Positions 2,245 through 8,897 of a stretch of 16,168 nucleotides of DNA are shown in pieces. This DNA is from a virus. Positions within the stretch are counted from its first letter, which is position 1, and every line of letters starts with the position of its first letter. The stretch lies in the UHGV virus genome UHGV-0141345. One strand, written 5' to 3'. The translations under genes were made by a program, and so were the position numbers. The notes beneath the pieces are model-generated. The model saw nothing but the letters and a program-made list of their open reading frames with translations. It made no database searches and had not been told where the DNA came from.

Positions 2245-3240
2245 GTGACCGTGAGAGCACTACTGACCCCTGAAATTGCCCCGCGTATGGGGATCGTATT
2301 GTTCAGGCCAGGTTCAGAGCTGATGCCCCTGTTTATGCAGGGGCGTGTCCTGCTGGAGCCTGAGCCGGAACGTTATTCATCTTTCGCCAGTGGTGCCGTT
2401 CCGGCGGCATCACAACCGCTGGCGGATGATCCTGCCGTTCGGGCCGTGTTCCGCAATGAGGAAGTGATCCGTCGTGCTGGTGGCGTGGAATGTCTTGAAA
2501 GCTGGTTACTTCGTGAAAAAGGCTGCCAGTGGCCTCATTCCGACTGGCACAGCGAGAACATGACAACAATGCGACACGCGCCGGGCGCAATCCGTCTGTG
2601 CTGGCACTGCGATAACCAGCTGCGCGATCAGTTCACGGAACGGCTGGAATCAATGGCAACGGATAACTGTGCCCGCTGGGTGTTGTCTGTTGTGCGTCGG
2701 GATCTCGGTTTTGATGATAGTCACGTTGTGACAATGCCGGAACTGTGCTGGTGGCTGATTCGTAATGACCTGGCGGATGCCTTACCGGAAAGTGCAGCCC
2801 GTAAGGCACTGAGATTACCGAAGCCTGTTGTGCCGTCTGTCACCCGGGAAAGTGACCTTGTGCCTTCGGTTCCTGCCACCAGCATCATCCAGGATAAGGC
2901 GAAAAAGGTGCTGGCGCTGAAAGTGGATCCGGAGTCGCCGGAGTCTTTTATGTTACGCCCAAAACGTCGCCGCTGGGTTAATGAAAAGTACACACGCTGG
3001 GTTAAGACACAGCCGTGTGCATGTTGTGGAAAGCCTGCTGATGATCCCCACCACCTGATAGGCCACGGTCAGGGGGGAATGGGTACAAAAGCGCATGACC
3101 TCTTTGTGTTGCCTTTGTGCAGAAAGCATCACGACGAGCTGCATGCGGATACCGTGGCATTTGAAGAGAAGTATGGCTCCCAGCTGGAGCTGATATTTCG
3201 TTTTATCGATCGTGCGCTGGCAATTGGCGTGCTGGCCTGA
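2245..3240 (+). CDS. DUF968-like phage protein with C-terminal Cys/His (HNH-like) metal-binding cluster
   Basis: 331 aa ORF starting at GTG 2245 directly after the upstream stop; start uncertain (in-frame ATG at 2287). C-terminal CACCGKP...HHLIGHG...H[12 protein letters not shown] motif. Sits immediately upstream of Q, as DUF968 genes do in E. coli lambdoid prophages. Confidence 0.7.
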
Positions 3241-3257
3241 TTTTGTGGAGAACGTTG

Positions 3258-3623
3258 ATGCGTGATATTCAAATGGTTCTTGAACGTTGGGGGGCATGGG
3301 TGGCAAATAATCACGAGGATGTCACCTGGTCGTCTATTGCTGCAGGATTTAAAGGACTAATCCCTTCAAAAGTAAAATCCCGCCCGCAATGTTGTGACGA
3401 TGATGCGATGATCATTTGTGGGTGCATGGCTCGCCTGAAAAAGAACAACAGCGATTTGCACGATTTATTAGTGGATTATTATGTAGGTGGTATGACGTTT
3501 ATGGCGCTTGCCCGTAAACATGGGCGTTCTGATTGCTGGGTTGGGCGTTTATTGCAAAAGGCTGAAGGTGTAGTTGATGGCATGTTAATGATGTTAGAAA
3601 TTGAGCTAGAGATGGATCGTTAG
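3258..3623 (+). CDS. Late-gene antitermination protein Q (short Q-like, Phage_antitermQ family, QuuD-type)
   Basis: Start at ATG 3258 with GGAG 7 nt upstream (the track ORF begins at TTG 3243). 121 aa with Cys-rich segment ([16 protein letters not shown]). Position immediately upstream of the lysis region. Confidence 0.8.
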
Positions 3624-3665
3624 AAGACCTCTTATTGAGGGGGTAATTGAATCAGTTTAATGTGT

Positions 3666-3700
3666 GGGGAGTCGATTTATTCTCCCCATTTTATTTAATT
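3666..3700 (+). terminator. Putative rho-independent terminator downstream of Q
   Basis: Stem GGGGAG (3666-3671) / CTCCCC (3682-3687) with 10-nt loop, followed by ATTTTATTTAATT. The tail is U-rich only on the + strand. Lies between convergent genes Q (+) and the lipoprotein gene (-). Confidence 0.4.
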
Positions 3701-3707
3701 AATTTAC

Positions 3708-4154
3708 TTAAGGTTTTAATTCATCAAGACGTTGTTGGATAGTGTTTTTGCTTGCGTTGTCTGTTATAGCCATTTGTTGTACTTGCCCCATTGCCATTTG
3801 AGTTTCCATCCACATATCGGCCCACACTTTTGTATCGTTATTAACTTGAGCGATAGTAAATCTGACTTTTGATACCGGGGTTGTTGAATAGGCATTGCCG
3901 ATTAACATTTGTCCAAAAACAGCAGAGCCGCCTTCCAGTTCTTTACCACATATAACACTGCTGTTATCCGCGTTGTAAATTATCAACCCTCTACTATTGC
4001 AGTAATTCACAAGGGCATCTTTGACTTTATCTTTTGTCATATTTTGATAAACCCCCTCAGGTTTTCCTGATTGAGTTTTCTTTATCAATGGTACGGAAGA
4101 AGTACAACCTGAAATGATAGTTGCGCTAAGTAATAGTACAGTCATTTTATTCAT
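3708..4154 (-). CDS. Hypothetical lipoprotein (accessory gene convergent with Q)
   Basis: 148 aa. N-terminus MNKMTVLLLSATIISGC has a signal peptide and lipobox (ISG|C). The gene and surroundings are visibly AT-rich relative to flanking phage genes. No family recognised. Confidence 0.65.
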   Translation of the reverse strand: MNKMTVLLLSATIISGCTSSVPLIKKTQSGKPEGVYQNMTKDKVKDALVNYCNSRGLIIYNADNSSVICGKELEGGSAVFGQMLIGNAYSTTPVSKVRFTIAQVNNDTKVWADMWMETQMAMGQVQQMAITDNASKNTIQQRLDELKP

Positions 4155-4182
4155 GTTTCTTATCCATTGTTAAGGGCATACC

Positions 4183-4216
4183 CACACAATTATTTTTATT
4201 GGAGATGAATAATCAA
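4183..4216 (-). promoter_or_regulatory. Candidate sigma70 promoter for the lipoprotein gene
   Basis: On the - strand: -35 TTGATT (complement of 4211-4216), 16-bp spacer, -10 AATAAT (complement of 4189-4194), about 30 nt upstream of the ATG at 4154. Prediction by eye only. Confidence 0.3.
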
Positions 4217-4277
4217 CCGTTTACAATCGTAAAAAATCAAATATGCTGTTAAGAGTGGTTACTTCGCCACACAACTT

Positions 4278-4302
4278 AAACCCGCCGCTGAGCGGTTTTT
4301 TT
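4278..4302 (+). terminator. Putative rho-independent terminator (possibly tR'-like)
   Basis: Short GC stem CCGC(4285-4288)/GCGG(4292-4295) with 3-nt loop followed by T7 (4296-4302). Weak stem, strong U-tract. Confidence 0.35.
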
Positions 4303-4424
4303 GTACCTGTAAACTTGGTGCAGTACAGTAAACACGCTGGTGGTCGTGAATACTGACTTTTTATCTTGCTGGCTTTTTAGACAAGAGTTATTGGTATGTC
4401 ATGTTAACCAGAAGGGGAAAAGAC

Positions 4425-4628
4425 ATGCTAAAACAGCAAGATATGACAGAAACCGCCGCCGCAGTCCTTCATTTCTTACCTGCTGACAAGTGGGTAACGC
4501 CACGCATGATGACGAGAACTACCGGAGTAAGCGAAGCCCGGTGCCAGTTAATACTGACCCAGTTAGTTCTGGCGGGTCTGGCGAAGGGTAACGGCGGGTA
4601 CGGGAATAAATTCAGACGCTGCCAGTAA
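4425..4628 (+). CDS. Small winged-helix DNA-binding protein, tentatively FaeA/PapI-like
   Basis: 67 aa from ATG 4425, with SD-like AAGGGGA (4412-4418) 6 nt upstream (track ORF begins at ATG 4401, which lacks an SD). Pattern VLHFL...VT...GVSEAR-QLILTQLVLAGLA...GG resembles small wHTH regulators of the PapI/FaeA type. Assignment from pattern memory only. Confidence 0.45.
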   Translation: MLKQQDMTETAAAVLHFLPADKWVTPRMMTRTTGVSEARCQLILTQLVLAGLAKGNGGYGNKFRRCQ

Positions 4629-4778
4629 TGGCGGTTTCCTGCTGTGAAAATGGGCGGCTGGTGGGTGTTGGTAGCACCTGCCAGCCATTCGCTCATGCTT
4701 ACTGGTCACAAGCGAACCACGGCCCACTGCTTTAGCGCAAAAGCAGAGTGAGCCTACCAGAGTTACGCTTACTGATCC

Positions 4779-5831
4779 ATGAAAAACACTGTAAAAATAA
4801 ACAGTGTTGATTTAATCAACGCTGATTGCCTGCATTTTATTCAGTCCCTGCCTGATGATTCCATTGACCTGATTGTTACCGATCCGCCGTACTTCAAGGT
4901 GAAACCCAACGGCTGGGACAATCAGTGGAAAGGGGACGAAGATTACCTTAAGTGGCTGGATCACTGTCTGGCCCAGTTCTGGCGGGTGTTAAAACCTGCT
5001 GGAAGCCTTTACCTGTTCTGTGGGCATCGCCTGGCATCTGATATTGAGATCATGATGCGTGAACGTTTCAACGTGCTTAACCATATCATCTGGGCGAAGC
5101 CGTCCGGACGTTGGAATGGGTGTAATAAAGAAAGTCTGCGCGCATATTTTCCTGCCACAGAGCGCGTTCTGTTTGCTGAACATTACCAGGGGCCATATCG
5201 CGGCAAAAGTGACGGCTATGCGGCAAAAGAAAGGGAACTCAAACAGCACATAATGGCACCGCTGATATCGTATTTCAGGGATGCTCGTGCCGAACTGGGT
5301 ATAACGGCAAAACAAATTGCCGAAGCCACAGGTAAGAAAAATATGGTTTCCCACTGGTTTGGTGCCAGTCAGTGGCAGTTGCCGAATGAGGCTGACTATC
5401 GGAAGTTACAGGCACTGTTTTCCCGTATAGCGGCAGAGAAGTTTCAGGAACAACAACTGGAACAACCACACCACCAGCTGGTGGCATCTTATGATTCACT
5501 GAATCGCAAATATTCTGAATTGCTGGATGAGTTTAAATCTCTCCGGCGCTATTTCTCCGTATCAGTCTCCGTGCCTTATACCGATGTCTGGACGCATAAG
5601 CCCGTTCAGTTCTACCCGGGTAAACATCCGTGCGAGAAACCGGCGGATATGCTCCGGCAAATAATCAATGCCAGTAGTCGACCTGGTGATCTGGTTGCTG
5701 ATTTCTTTATGGGATCCGGTTCCACAATAAAAGCGGCAATGGCGCTGGGGCGTCAGGCGTTAGGTGTTGAACTTGAGTCAGAGCGGTTTAATCAGACGGT
5801 GAAAGAGGTAAGTGAACTGGTGGGGAAATAA
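4779..5831 (+). CDS. Beta-class DNA amino-methyltransferase (N6_N4_Mtase-like; probably N6-adenine), orphan
   Basis: 350 aa. Motif IV DPPY near the N-terminus (TDPPYF) and motif I FxGSGST near the C-terminus (FFMGSGSTIKAA), the beta-class order with a central target-recognition region. DPPY rather than SPPF favours N6-adenine. No restriction endonuclease gene is adjacent. Confidence 0.85.
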   Translation: MKNTVKINSVDLINADCLHFIQSLPDDSIDLIVTDPPYFKVKPNGWDNQWKGDEDYLKWLDHCLAQFWRVLKPAGSLYLFCGHRLASDIEIMMRERFNVLNHIIWAKPSGRWNGCNKESLRAYFPATERVLFAEHYQGPYRGKSDGYAAKERELKQHIMAPLISYFRDARAELGITAKQIAEATGKKNMVSHWFGASQWQLPNEADYRKLQALFSRIAAEKFQEQQLEQPHHQLVASYDSLNRKYSELLDEFKSLRRYFSVSVSVPYTDVWTHKPVQFYPGKHPCEKPADMLRQIINASSRPGDLVADFFMGSGSTIKAAMALGRQALGVELESERFNQTVKEVSELVGK

Positions 5832-5836
5832 TTCTG

Positions 5837-5864
5837 GTGGCCACGTTGCGTGGCCTTTTTATTT
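5837..5864 (+). terminator. Rho-independent terminator after the methyltransferase
   Basis: Perfect 7-bp stem GGCCACG (5839-5845) / CGTGGCC (5849-5855) with loop TTG, followed by TTTTTATTT. Confidence 0.6.
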
Positions 5865-5907
5865 CCAACACAGCACCCGCAAATATCGCGAGGTGAGAGA
5901 TGACGAA

Positions 5908-6243
5908 ATGCCTCATAACCCAAATACATGGCCGGACTGGCTGGAGTTGTTTCAGAGCTGGTGGCGTGGAGACACACCGCTTGGTGCAGTGATTATGTCG
6001 ATCGTTATGGCTGGTTTGCGCATCGCCTATTTTGGCGGTGGTGGTGGCTGGAAGCGAAAAACGCTCGAGATTTTGCTATGTGGCGCTCTGACGCTGACCT
6101 TTGCATCCGCTCTTGAGTATGTCGGATGGCCTAAATCGCTTTCTGTTGCCATTGGTGGTGGCGTGGGGCTGATCGGTGTCGATGCTATTCGTGGGGCTGC
6201 AATGCGAGTAATCGGTAACAAATTTGGTAGCTCGAAGGAGTAA
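5908..6243 (+). CDS. S: Holin, lambda S family (class I)
   Basis: 111 aa from ATG 5908 with SD AGGTGAGAG (5891-5899). The C-terminal two-thirds resemble lambda S (AY-G---GG-----T-------C; SL-VAIGGGVGLIGVDAI). The N-terminus differs from lambda S and has no Met-Lys-Met dual-start motif. Directly precedes R. Confidence 0.8.
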   Translation: MPHNPNTWPDWLELFQSWWRGDTPLGAVIMSIVMAGLRIAYFGGGGGWKRKTLEILLCGALTLTFASALEYVGWPKSLSVAIGGGVGLIGVDAIRGAAMRVIGNKFGSSKE

Positions 6244-6246
6244 TTT

Positions 6247-6723
6247 ATGCAGGCACTAAATTCCCAGCGTAAAGCTTTCCTGGATATGGTGGCATGGTCA
6301 GAAGGAACGGATAACGGACGGCAGAAAACCAGAAATCATGGTTATGACGTCATTGTAGGCGGAGAGCTATTTACTGATTACTCCGATCACCCTCGCAAGC
6401 TTGTCACGCTAAACCCCAAACTCAAATCAACAGCAGCCGGACGTTATCAGCTTCTTTCACGCTGGTGGGATGCTTACCGTAAGCAGCTTGGCCTGAAAGA
6501 CTTCTCCCCCAAAAGCCAGGACGCAGTGGCATTGCAGCAGATTAAAGAACGTGGCGCTTTACCGATGATTGATCGCGGTGATATCCGTCAGGCAATCGAC
6601 CGTTGCAGCAATATCTGGGCTTCACTGCCGGGGGCTGGTTATGGTCAGTTCGAGCATAAGGCTGACAACCTGATTGCAAAATTCAAAGAAGCTGGCGGAA
6701 TGGTCAGAGAGATTGAGGTATGA
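6247..6723 (+). CDS. R: Endolysin R (lytic transglycosylase), near-identical to lambda R
   Basis: 158 aa; from residue ~5 onward matches my recollection of lambda R almost exactly ([46 protein letters not shown]...). SD AAGGAG upstream. Confidence 0.95.
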
Positions 6724-7157
6724 GCAGAGTAACCGCGATTATCTCCGCTCTGGTTATCTGCATCATCGTCTGCCTGTCGTGGGCGGTCAATCATTACCGT
6801 GATAACGCCATGACCTACAAAGAGCAGCGCGATAAAGCCACATCCATCATCGCTGATATGCAGAAGCGTCAACGTGATGTAGCAGAACTCGACGCCAGAT
6901 ACACAAAGGAGCTTGCTGATGCTAACGCGACTATCGAAAGTCTCCGTGCTGATGTTTCTGCTGGTCGTAAGCGCCTGCAAGTCGCCGCCACCTGTGCAAA
7001 GTCAACGACCGGAGCCAGCGGCATGGGCGATGGAGAAAGCCCAAGACTTACAGCAGATGCTGAACTCAATTATTACCGTCTCCGAAGTGGAATCGACAAG
7101 ATAACCGCGCAGGTTAACTACCTGCAGGAGTACATCAGGACGCAATGCCTGAAATAA
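6720..7157 (+). CDS. Rz: Spanin inner-membrane subunit Rz
   Basis: 145 aa; N-terminus [30 protein letters not shown] matches lambda Rz. Start overlaps the R stop (ATGA). Confidence 0.9.
6919..7104 (+). CDS. Rz1: Spanin outer-membrane lipoprotein Rz1, embedded in the +1 frame of Rz
   Basis: 61 aa from ATG 6919. Signal peptide with lipobox (VVSAC) followed by a Pro-rich segment ([13 protein letters not shown]). Entirely nested inside Rz, as in lambda. Confidence 0.75.
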
Positions 7158-7188
7158 TTTTTTTGCAAATCACAAAGTCAATTTAATG

Positions 7189-7211
7189 AGCCTCGCGATG
7201 CGGGGCTTTTT
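7189..7211 (+). terminator. Rho-independent terminator downstream of Rz/Rz1
   Basis: 8-bp stem AGCCTCGC (7189-7196) / GCGGGGCT (7200-7207) with one G-U pair, loop GAT, followed by TTTT. Confidence 0.5.
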
Positions 7212-7218
7212 GCAATAA

Positions 7219-7243
7219 ATGCGTACCGCAACGCATGTTTTTT
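7219..7243 (+). terminator. Second tandem terminator-like hairpin
   Basis: Perfect inverted repeat ATGCGT (7219-7224) / ACGCAT (7231-7236), 6-nt loop, then G + T6 (7238-7243). Confidence 0.4.
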
Positions 7244-7358
7244 ACACCGAACCTGCCCCTTTGGAATGGGCCTTTGAGGATACCAGTTAGTGCTGGCGAG
7301 CCTCGGTGGGCTGGTTTCCTGTGCGGCAAAGGTTCATTTCAAAGAGTAGGTACACGCT

Positions 7359-7895
7359 ATGAAATCATTAACCCTCTTCAATCAACCAATTCGTATCGGT
7401 GAAGATGGCATGATCTGCCTCACTGATATGTGGAAAGCCAGTGGTAAAAGTGAATCTGAATCGCCTTACCACTACCTGCGAAACAAGCAGACCAAAGAGT
7501 TCTTAGCCGAGCTGGAGAAAAACCACGAATCTGTGGTTTTTACTGAGCGCGGTGTACACGGTGGAACATATGGCGGGAAGTTTGTTGCTTACGATTATGC
7601 GGCTTGGTTAAACCCCGGGTTCAAGTACGCGGCCTATAAAGTCCTCGATGACTACTTCACCGGAGAACTTCAGCATCGCAACAGCTTAAGTGCGCAGCTC
7701 AACATGAAATGTCATGAGTTTGACCAGAAGAAAGACATGGCGAGCTTCTGCGGACAAGGGCTGGCAGCATGGCGCTATACGAAGCCAGTGTTGGTCGCTG
7801 AGATTAACTCCCTGGCTAACCAGCTGCAGATAACGATCCCCGGGCTGTCCGGTATTTGCCGGTATGAAATTACCGGAAGGCGCGGTCGTTACTGA
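7359..7895 (+). CDS. KilA-N domain protein (second copy in window)
   Basis: 178 aa; KilA-N hallmarks (ICLTDMWKASGK, ERGVHGGTYGGKFVAYDYAAWLNPGFKYAAYKVL). Lies between the lysis cassette and cos. Followed by hairpin GCAGCCC/GGGCTGC at 7914-7936. Confidence 0.75.
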   Translation: MKSLTLFNQPIRIGEDGMICLTDMWKASGKSESESPYHYLRNKQTKEFLAELEKNHESVVFTERGVHGGTYGGKFVAYDYAAWLNPGFKYAAYKVLDDYFTGELQHRNSLSAQLNMKCHEFDQKKDMASFCGQGLAAWRYTKPVLVAEINSLANQLQITIPGLSGICRYEITGRRGRY

Positions 7896-8139
7896 GTAAG
7901 AGCAGGCATTACAGCAGCCCTTCACTGAGGGGCTGCGATAATGTGAGGAATAAAAAACCGGCAGGGGAAATCCATTGAAGATTTGCCGGTGGCAAAAGAT
8001 GGCCATGCTTTTAACCTTAGTAGCAGAGCTACGGAGTTCAACAACGACCGTCGCCGTTATCTTGCTGAAAGGCGTTTCAATGATTTTCATCAATTTATTC
8101 ATCAGCAATGGTGATAATCACTCTCATTTTGGCGGGTCC

Positions 8140-8330
8140 TTCCGGTGGGGTGGCCTGCCACGGGGCGGAAGGCGCGCAGGTTTTCGCTATTTATGAAAAT
8201 TTTCCGGTTTAAGGCGTTTCCGTTCTTCTTCGCCGTAACTTAATGTTTTTATTTAAAACACCCCCTGAAAAGAAAGGAAACGACAGGTGCTGAAAACGGG
8301 CTTTTTGGCCTCTGTCGTTTCCTTTCTCTG
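8140..8330. other. cos region: cosN-equivalent (~8163-8174) and cosB with R3, R2/R1 terminase-binding repeats
   Basis: The segment GGTTTTCGCTATTTATGAAAATTTTCCGGTTTAAGGCGTTTCCGTTCTTCTTCG...AAAGGAAACGACAG...CTGTCGTTTCCTTTCTCTG matches my memory of the lambda left end, ending at the Nu1 start codon. Perfect 15-bp inverted repeat GAAAGGAAACGACAG (8272-8286) / CTGTCGTTTCCTTTC (8312-8326) corresponds to R2/R1. The 12-mer at the cosN position is GGGCGGAAGGCG, not canonical GGGCGGCGACCT. Confidence 0.75.
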
Positions 8331-8351
8331 TTTTTGTCCGTGGAATGAACA

Positions 8352-8871
8352 ATGGAAGTCAACAAAAAGCAGCTGGCTGACATTTTCGGTGCGAGTATCC
8401 GTACCATTCAGAACTGGCAGGAGCAGGGAATGCCCGTTCTGCGAGGCGGTGGGAAGGGTAATGAGGTGCTTTATGACTCTGCCGCCGTCATAAAATGGTA
8501 TGCCGAAAGGGATGCTGAAATTGAGAACGAAAAGCTGCGCCGGGAAGTTGAAGAACTGCGGCAGGCCAGCGAGACAGATCTGCAGCCAGGGACTATTGAG
8601 TACGAACGCCATCGACTTACGCGTGCGCAGGCCGACGCACAGGAGCTGAAGAATGCCAGAGACTCCGCTGAAGTGGTGGAAACCGCATTCTGTACTTTCG
8701 TGCTGTCGCGGATCGCAGGTGAAATTGCCAGTATTCTCGACGGGATCCCCCTGTCGGTGCAGCGGCGTTTTCCGGAACTGGAAAACCGACATGTTGATTT
8801 CCTGAAATGGGATATCATCAAAGCCATGAACAAAGCAGCCGCGCTGGATGAACTGATACCGGGGTTGCTGA

Positions 8872-8897
<26 letters not shown>
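8352..8897 (+). CDS. Nu1: Terminase small subunit Nu1
   Basis: 181 aa; essentially identical to lambda gpNu1 as I recall it (MEVNKKQLADIFGASIRTIQNWQEQGMPVLRGGGKGNEVLYDSAAVIKWYAERD...). Confidence 0.97.

Follow-up and report, generated by a model that had tools for sequence, protein, structure and literature searches.

We describe here a conserved structured RNA leader that ends at the start codon of an adenine methyltransferase gene in UHGV virus genome UHGV-0141345. This stretch of DNA, 16,168 nt long and called 'the window' below, is a lambdoid prophage of E. coli; its part from 3600 to 6300 is 100% identical to one RefSeq chromosome. The leader lies between the methylase gene and the gene of a small winged-helix protein, and the three together form one unit. 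Taken as a whole, the unit is probably the first cargo of a Q-dependent late operon, an anti-restriction methylase of the M.EcoGII type provided with a translational leader switch. As far as sequence comparison can tell, the new element is the conserved regulatory anatomy, the leader above all, and it applies equally to the M.EcoGII locus itself. An original prediction, made from the letters of the window, had paired a 67-aa open reading frame (ORF) with a 350-aa methyltransferase carrying beta-class motifs; both genes and the motifs are where it had placed them. The parts of the unit are as follows.

4425–4628, plus strand: gene of a 67-aa winged-helix protein (phrog_331, E=2e-25, function unknown; coding sequence WP_063268626.1 of the Prokaryotic Genome Annotation Pipeline, PGAP)
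4647–4778, plus strand: conserved structured leader, ∼130 nt, a three-way junction P1–P2–P3 followed by hairpins
4779–5831, plus strand: gene of a 350-aa beta-class N6-adenine methyltransferase of the M.EcoGII family (PF01555, E=1.4e-42, residues 29–341)

Conservation and structure of the leader

The 150 nt between the two genes (4629–4778) had been treated as plain intergenic DNA. The spacer does exist, but it is occupied by a conserved, covarying leader RNA with the following helices.

4651–4655 with 4722–4726, plus strand: P1, a long-range helix (UGGGC with GCCCA) that encloses P2 and P3
4656–4667 with 4675–4686, plus strand: P2, hairpin
4688–4693 with 4711–4716, plus strand: P3, hairpin
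4727–4733 with 4740–4746, plus strand: P4, 3′ of P1; a weak P5 and the start region come next

The spacer is better conserved than the two genes. Compared with the Mangrovibacter locus L034 it reaches 90% identity, as against 74.5% for the methylase coding sequence; for the distant viral locus L216 the values are 77% and 62%. In 13 of 14 comparisons the leader had at least the nucleotide identity of the coding sequence beside it. An nhmmer search found the leader once per locus, always ending at the methylase ATG (53 loci), and a covariance model located it in 73 of 80 N15-type loci, where it again ends at the methylase ATG. Apart from the methylase the leader was found only as a recombination remnant.

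The 80 loci were retrieved with gp52 of phage N15, to which their methylases are 59–100% identical; a scan of viral contigs with the window methylase had given only copies 98–100% identical, of no use for covariation, whereas the gp52 query gave diversity. The covariance model was built on a MAFFT alignment of 52 sequences, to which RNAalifold was applied, and the pair counts refer to the four-helix structure. Standard pairs fill 85% of the cells in the MAFFT alignment and 83% in the alignment fitted to the model. Compensating double changes were observed at 13 pairs in the former (5.5±1.2 after shuffling, with 0 of 500 shuffles reaching 13, and 5–8 for slid structures) and at 26 of 32 pairs in the latter (18.8±1.2 after shuffling, 0 of 500 reaching 26, and 10–12 for slid structures). 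The covariation score behaves likewise: 0.112 versus 0.061 shuffled and 0.034–0.086 slid in the MAFFT alignment, 0.42 versus 0.14 shuffled and 0.05–0.11 slid in the model-fitted one. P1 has a compensatory change of its own, from G-C to A-U (RNAalifold).

Single-sequence folding gave z=−4.9 for the window leader and −3.5 for the N15 leader; the minimum-free-energy folds of single sequences deviate in detail from the structure supported by covariation. The invariant unpaired nucleotides are AAUGGGCG, CAUU and AACCAAGGCCCA.

There is no match in Rfam 15, either at E≤1 over 3000–8500 or, among relevant families, at E≤10 over 4590–4800. We found no description of the leader or of the small ORF in the literature, the coverage of which was partial and is not proof of absence. 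The leader occurs in loci of Enterobacteriaceae, Morganellaceae and N15-type phages; it is a candidate new RNA motif in thousands of genomes. A hidden small ORF in the spacer was considered as well, since a 33-codon frame of the window begins with an invariant ATG; it was rejected, with 1-nt indels in loops and a stop after seven codons in most sequences.

Start region and alternative pairing

The leader offers a second way of pairing, in which a part of P3 joins the sequence before the methylase start codon, CGCUUACUGAUCC-AUG.

4766–4781, plus strand: methylase initiation region, CGCTTACTGATCC plus ATG, without Shine-Dalgarno sequence and with a nearly invariant GATC at 4774–4777
4704–4714, plus strand: loop and 3′ strand of P3, GGTCACAAGCG, which can pair with 4766–4777 in place of the P3 5′ strand (minimum-free-energy fold, RNAduplex)

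In 100 distinct leaders the duplex of the P3 3′ half with the start region had a median energy of −10 kcal/mol (RNAduplex; z=−2.2 versus shuffles), and for control duplexes with other parts of the leader the values were −4 to −9 kcal/mol. The duplex is preserved in three different sequence versions, AAGCG/CGCUU, GGA/UCC and CAGGC/GCCUG. The leader thus abuts a start codon that lacks a Shine-Dalgarno sequence, and the start region can be drawn into an alternative pairing with P3, from which we infer a cis-acting translational switch. The leader probably gates translation of the toxic methylase in this way.

The GATC located 2 nt 5′ of the methylase ATG has a complementary GRUCA in the P3 loop (4704–4708). 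The match may reflect RNA pairing or, at the DNA level, the biology of Dam and SeqA. Since GRUCA and the UGAUC before the AUG are both nearly invariant, a pseudoknot as a separate element is beyond a covariation test, and it was merged into the analysis of the alternative pairing.

The methylase

Besides PF01555, the methylase matches phrog_67 (E=7e-102) and the PADLOC model MTase_II (E=5e-152). DPPY at residues 35–38 (4881–4892) and FMGSGS at residues 310–315 (5706–5723) stand in the beta-class order. Aligned end to end with two gaps, 282 of 349 residues (81%) are identical to those of M.EcoGII, the reference sequence for which was machine-read, with a few read errors, from the supplement PDF of PMC11551740. 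The identity spans the central target-recognition domain and the charged linker, with the stretch LGITAKQIA.ATGKKNMV.HWF conserved. Methylases with 93–95% identity to M.EcoGII (in Stx2a phage Stx2_95 and in E. albertii) are found in loci with the same layout of small ORF, leader and methylase, and homologues in Stx2a and Stx2c phages sit directly 5′ of tRNA and stx genes. By its sequence the window methylase is therefore an allele of the M.EcoGII family, an enzyme of a common and characterised kind. The original prediction had named a prophage methylase of just this M.EcoGII type, without functional link to the upstream ORF, as the case that would speak against it. As regards the enzyme, at 81% identity, this is the case found; a functional link may exist, synteny being strong in both directions but not obligatory. 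As the methylase is an allele of a well-known and widespread phage enzyme, the pair is not to be treated as a new epigenetic system.

Around 5256–5489 (plus strand) the gene encodes a target-recognition domain with a helix-turn-helix (HTH). The segment ELGITAKQIAEATG (residues 172–185) had been noticed as an HTH-like insert; there is a weak Pfam HTH_3 signal at residues 167–193, and the HTH-containing stretch is real. It is not special to this enzyme, being the four-helix target-recognition domain with HTH that is known from the central region of M.EcoGII (PMC11551740). The nearest solved relatives of the methylase are ordinary beta-class enzymes, and the match to them is confined to the catalytic domain.

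M.EcoGII accepts adenine in any sequence context; its gene is silent in lysogens, and expression of the enzyme does harm (PMC5778455; PMC12707154). M.EcoGII, M.EcoGI and all six reconstructed ancestors of the clade methylate both DNA and RNA, and no RNA sequence motif was seen by Nanopore for M.EcoGII, Anc291 and SUPREM (PMC11551740); on DNA, absence of a motif was shown for M.EcoGII/M.EcoGI (PMC5778455; PMC11551740). By analogy with its family the window allele would methylate adenine in any context and act late, and its position behind a late terminator, together with this literature, suggests silence in the lysogen. A self-contained epigenetic switch, as first proposed for the pair, requires the methylase to recognise a specific sequence and to be active in the lysogen, and the M.EcoGII family is non-specific and lysogen-silent. 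Of the suggested epigenetic or anti-restriction module expressed with late genes, the late anti-restriction use remains plausible, while the epigenetic switch is essentially excluded.

A second adenine methyltransferase gene, of the phage Dam type (PF05869, E=1e-45), is located at 19–705 in a nin-like region; the prophage therefore carries two unrelated adenine methylases.

The small winged-helix protein

The small ORF has a Shine-Dalgarno-like sequence of its own.

4413–4418, plus strand: AGGGGA, Shine-Dalgarno-like sequence of the small ORF (read from sequence)

A longer form of 75 aa could start at 4401; the homologues and PGAP start at 4425. The ORF has 150 database relatives in Escherichia, Salmonella, Klebsiella, Pantoea and Kosakonia, which PGAP names 'hypothetical' or 'TrmB family transcriptional regulator'; their Pfam signal for TrmB is weak (E=8e-4 to 3e-3, below the cut-off). 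The median dN/dS over 489 pairs is 0.19, an indication of purifying selection. Variation at synonymous sites contrasts with a nearly invariant N terminus, MLKQQDMTETA, and helix 3, RCQLILTQ; the 5′ untranslated region of the ORF contains conserved blocks. An AlphaFold2 model (predicted local distance difference test score, pLDDT, of 83) has winged-helix topology. The expectation that the ORF is real and has a winged-helix fold is thus borne out by the selection on it and by the model, and we take the small ORF to be a genuine conserved gene, the modelled fold being that of a generic winged-helix protein. It could be a co-regulator, or it could have an independent late function.

The likeness to PapI/FaeA that had been proposed for the small protein found no support in Pfam, NCBIfam or Protein Data Bank (PDB) profile searches. 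The two identities offered for checking were a FaeA-like protein (PF04703) and an Xre-type C-protein, and the signature of neither is present: a Pfam scan at E≤0.1 gave only MarR_2 (E=0.068), and NCBIfam gave nothing. PapI was not in the profile search against PDB sequences (E≤10), nor was it among the top structural matches.

The best fold match of all was to Z-alpha domains, with IclR, MarR, ArsR, TrmB and SelB domains close behind. Z-alpha domains (ADAR1, ZBP1, PKZ and the poxvirus E3L family) are characterised by a conserved Asn and Tyr in helix 3 and by Pro-Pro-x-Trp in the wing. In a hand alignment of RCQLILTQL to ADAR1 Z-alpha, made from sequence and not from an inspected structural alignment, the small protein has Q41 and T45 at the Asn and Tyr positions, and its wing, GNGGYGNKFRRCQ, has no PPxW. 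A Z-alpha identity was rejected, as the signature residues are absent; sequence identity to these domains is 8–17%, and the winged helices of IclR, MarR, ArsR and TrmB score nearly equally.

Linkage of the small ORF and the methylase

A profile search over 79 E. coli viral loci placed the small ORF just 5′ of the methylase in 78. With one genome per species the count was 57 of 74 loci, and among N15-type loci it was 50 of 77. In the reverse direction, 69 of 76 loci with the O157-type small ORF have a methylase ∼155 nt 3′ of it. There are also prophages without a methylase in which the small ORF comes after Q. The linkage is strong but not obligatory.

Two loci without the methylase illustrate this. 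In L247 (2387–3435) a gene of AraC type occupies the methylase's place, and the leader is reduced to the 5′ strand of P1 and the P2 hairpin, a recombination scar. In L246 (2387–2584) the small ORF stands after Q and there is no methylase. The Xenorhabdus and Photorhabdus loci (L051–L083) retain the small ORF with an invariant RCQLLLTQ helix.

The locus and its transcription

The gene order of the region is Q, a promoter-like site, a conserved terminator, the unit of small ORF and methylase, and the holin. The features around the unit are listed below.

3243–3623, plus strand: Q antiterminator gene (PF06530, E=2.1e-51; 'antiterminator Q family protein' in PGAP), marking the start of the late region
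4220–4247, plus strand: putative pR′-like late promoter, TTTACA, a 16-nt spacer and TATGCT, with 9 of 12 consensus matches
4284–4303, plus strand: tR′-like intrinsic terminator (terminator scan), stem GCCGCTGAGCGGT and then T7
4619–4646, plus strand: hairpin P0 (4619–4634), CTGCCA/TGGCGG, with a GTAA loop, the small-ORF stop TAA at 4626–4628 and a U-rich tail
5839–5864, plus strand: strong intrinsic terminator that ends the methylase gene 5′ of the holin (terminator scan), stem 5839–5855 with 7 pairs (6 G-C), then the T-run TTTTTATTT
5908–6243, plus strand: holin of the lambda family (PF05106, E=5.9e-27; PGAP start 5908), the first lysis gene

The unit thus lies in the cargo slot between Q and a lambda-type holin and is closed by a strong terminator, both as predicted. 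Also as predicted, the beta-class adenine methylase (PF01555 and motif order) comes without a cognate endonuclease: neither the ORFs nor the PGAP annotation of the locus place an endonuclease gene next to the pair.

The DNA around and including the tR′-like terminator can be aligned with Q-proximal DNA of Stx2a phage Stx2_95 and of a Providencia phage. The position of the promoter-like site, just 5′ of the conserved terminator, is shared with both, and in both the pairing of the stem is retained with different sequences. In N15 a promoter and a terminator are annotated at the place equivalent to 4220–4303, directly before gp52. From these alignments we infer that 4220–4303 corresponds to pR′ and tR′; read in this way, it makes the small ORF and the methylase the first genes of a Q-dependent late transcript. 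Promoter and terminator should yield a transcript of ∼50 nt, comparable with lambda 6S RNA and with the StxS small RNA of Stx phages. There is no convincing promoter between the small ORF and the methylase, promoter-like sites being at chance level (6 found, 4.1 expected).

Of 105 distinct upstream contexts, 57 have a terminator-like hairpin with a T-run at the place of P0, and the stems covary; in the window P0 is weak. A ribosome terminating at the small-ORF stop would melt P0, which suggests coupling of translation and transcription. In loci without the small ORF, tR′ itself adjoins the leader.

Of 5426 complete E. coli genomes, 2625 contain small ORF, leader and methylase at ≥80% query coverage, in up to eight copies per genome, and the same gene pair recurs across Enterobacterales. 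This recurrence means that the arrangement is not due to chance.

Between Q and pR′ the minus strand carries, at 3708–4154, a moron for a 148-aa lipoprotein-like protein (phrog_3152, no Pfam family). It has a promoter-like site of its own (4173–4144, 10 of 12 matches) and is not present at the corresponding place in Stx2a phage Stx2_95; a hairpin at 3666–3685 may terminate both Q and this gene. Further downstream, a palindromic stretch at 8266–8332, just 5′ of the gene for a Nu1-like small terminase (8352–8897), is probably part of the cos region; it gave spurious microRNA matches on both strands.

Proposed mechanism and alternative explanations

In the explanation that we favour, Q would let RNA polymerase read through tR′, and the methylase would be made only then. 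Progeny phage DNA would be blanket-methylated and so evade restriction enzymes in the next host. Being toxic, the enzyme would sit behind several safety layers: tR′ (4284–4303), the terminator-like and translation-sensitive hairpin at the small-ORF stop codon (4619–4646) and the leader (4647–4778). The leader would decide on accessibility of the start region, by forming either the three-way junction or the duplex of the P3 3′ half with the 12 nt before the AUG. The small protein would be translated from the same transcript, presumably a single one, with a good ribosome-binding site; it is neither needed for the leader nor confined to methylase loci. As trigger one may think of the winged-helix protein, of a metabolite, of the enzyme or of co-transcriptional folding alone.

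A number of observations weigh against this explanation. In the N15 group and in L230, L233 and L225 the alternative pairing is weak or missing, and its z-scores derive from related sequences. For the larger covariation test, the alignment had been fitted to the covariance model. Fifteen loci retain the leader and the methylase without the small ORF. Xenorhabdus and Photorhabdus have, ∼100 nt 5′ of the methylase, only a short hairpin followed by Us and not the long leader; the hairpin may be an extra terminator. The putative late promoter at 4220–4247 matches the consensus at only 9 of 12 positions, and the 19% of residues that differ from M.EcoGII could in principle alter the specificity of the enzyme. 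Counts of G·U versus A·C leave the strand undecided (50 versus 65; 49 versus 82), and in 13 sequences P3 has a C·A mismatch, for which the opposite strand would have a G·U pair. We assign the leader to the plus strand because of its operon context and its fixed junction with the start codon.

A bolder version of the favoured explanation, which we put forward tentatively, would make the leader an undescribed class of cis-regulatory RNA, a ligand- or protein-responsive switch that gates the methylase lacking a Shine-Dalgarno sequence. The small protein would act on it in trans, as Com does in phage Mu, or else read or shield hypermethylated nucleic acid. The leader, tR′ and the stop-codon hairpin would combine into a safety catch for blanket methylation.

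Several rival explanations were weighed. In a system of the com-mom kind, the winged-helix protein would bind the leader and open the start region, and the methylase would be translated only after the small protein had accumulated. The layout suits such control: the small protein gene lies directly 5′, presumably on the same transcript, with a good Shine-Dalgarno sequence and the methylase is without one, the structured leader has an alternative pairing over the start region, and linkage is 80–98% in both directions. Winged helices can bind RNA hairpins, and SelB bound to SECIS RNA is among the fold matches. Nevertheless, binding of the protein to the leader is a prediction, Com is a zinc finger and not a winged helix, the leader is intact in the 15 loci without the small ORF, and the small ORF follows Q also where there is no methylase. 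A different P2 loop (L074) or an altogether different leader (Xenorhabdus) is not accompanied by any change in helix 3, RCQL[I/L]LTQ. The invariance of this recognition helix argues against a simple partnership of protein and leader, and it counts against our favoured explanation as well; we saw no co-variation between the helix and either the P2 loop or the leader type. Control of this kind is rather unlikely in our estimate.

Alternatively, the leader could be a metabolite-sensing riboswitch independent of the small protein, with S-adenosylmethionine (SAM) and S-adenosylhomocysteine (SAH) as obvious candidates. It has covarying helices around a junction of invariant unpaired nucleotides, followed by what would be a translational expression platform; it persists without the small ORF, and the gene downstream of it consumes SAM. 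On the other hand, the leader matches no Rfam riboswitch class even at E≤10, SAM and SAH are candidate ligands only, and the relatives in Xenorhabdus and Photorhabdus manage with a single hairpin. A late phage gene expressed for minutes also has a less obvious need of metabolite sensing. We consider a riboswitch unlikely.

About equally unlikely is a transcription factor in the style of C-proteins, which would bind DNA in 4303–4424 or 4629–4778 and time or limit transcription of the methylase gene. The predicted DNA-binding fold with its invariant recognition helix, the TrmB family name and weak TrmB signal of the relatives and the conserved blocks in the 5′ untranslated region of the small ORF would agree with such a role. 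It is opposed by the lack of a convincing promoter between the small ORF and the methylase and by a Q-modified polymerase that would read through regardless. Moreover, the fold is other than Xre, the locus has neither a C-box nor an endonuclease to delay, and the small ORF occurs also without the methylase.

It is improbable, too, that the leader is a processing or stability element or the source of a trans-acting small RNA. Its structure is strong enough (the z of −4.9 and −3.5 given above), and the slot 3′ of pR′ in prophages of enterohaemorrhagic E. coli is known to host small RNAs (PMC4104026; PMC7547250). However, the spacing to the methylase ATG is fixed in every locus, the leader is never apart from the methylase save for the recombination remnant, the pairing with the start region covaries, and no terminator sets a discrete 3′ end for a small RNA.

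The epigenetic reading, in which a PapI/FaeA-type factor and a sequence-specific phage methylase form a phase-variation-like switch in the lysogen, could appeal to the predicted winged-helix fold and to the GATC 2 nt before the methylase ATG, but it is largely refuted and very improbable, given no FaeA/PapI sequence signal, the absence of PapI from the top structural matches, a methylase family that is non-specific and silent in lysogens, and the placement of the unit behind tR′ in a late operon.

Significance and comparison with known systems

M.EcoGII is a widely used reagent, for example for footprinting of chromatin and of N6-methyladenosine in RNA, and it is a model for phage escape from restriction. 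To our knowledge, how phages keep such a toxic methylase off until late infection has not been described. A leader fixed to the start codon and a co-travelling winged-helix gene provide a concrete hypothesis for control of the methylase. The leader would be a new motif among bacterial and phage RNAs, if the candidate holds; prophages of about half of the sequenced E. coli carry the locus, which occurs also across Enterobacterales.

The switches built from PapI/FaeA, Dam and Lrp resemble the window in having a small winged-helix protein and adenine methylation. They differ in that the window protein has no sequence similarity and no preferential structural similarity to PapI/FaeA, and in that the window methylase would be non-specific and phage-late, whereas Dam is a GATC enzyme acting in growing cells. 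The window contains no fimbrial operon and no paired GATC-box architecture. In restriction-modification systems with C-proteins, too, the gene of a small DNA-binding protein adjoins the methylase gene (DNA binding by the window's small protein being predicted). C-proteins have an Xre-type HTH, autoregulate at C-boxes and delay the endonuclease; in the window there is a winged helix, no endonuclease and no identified C-box.

The closest enzyme for comparison is M.EcoGII/M.EcoGI from a prophage of E. coli O104:H4 C227-11. It shares with the window enzyme the length class (349 and 350 aa), 81% identity, the beta-class motif order, the HTH-containing target-recognition domain, the charged linker and the prophage slot 3′ of Q. 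It is a different allele, with 19% divergence, and the published work describes the enzyme only; we saw neither the upstream ORF nor an RNA leader mentioned in it.

In phage N15, gp52 is 56% identical to the window methylase, has the same leader (covariance model, E∼1e-13) and is followed by a holin. N15 gp51, with 75 aa, has the same winged-helix pattern and a marginal profile match to the small protein (E=1e-3). Unlike in the window, a promoter and a terminator are annotated between gp51 and the leader, so that gp51 lies outside the late transcript. The deposited start of gp52 (AF064539; L003 2956–4089) appears to be ∼230 nt too far downstream; by homology and by the position of the leader, the gp52 ORF would run from record position 41387 or earlier and not from 41621.

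The com gene of phage Mu overlaps mom and encodes a zinc-finger protein, the start of mom is hidden in an mRNA structure, and Mom is not a SAM methylase. The window unit differs from com-mom in having a winged helix in place of the zinc finger, a 150-nt spacer in place of the gene overlap and, in its leader, a multi-helix junction in place of a single stem-loop. In both, the gene of a small protein lies directly 5′ of the modification gene. The window unit would also share with com-mom a single mRNA for the two genes, an mRNA structure over the start of the modification gene and a toxic phage DNA-modification enzyme that is silent in lysogens (PMC12707154 and established knowledge).

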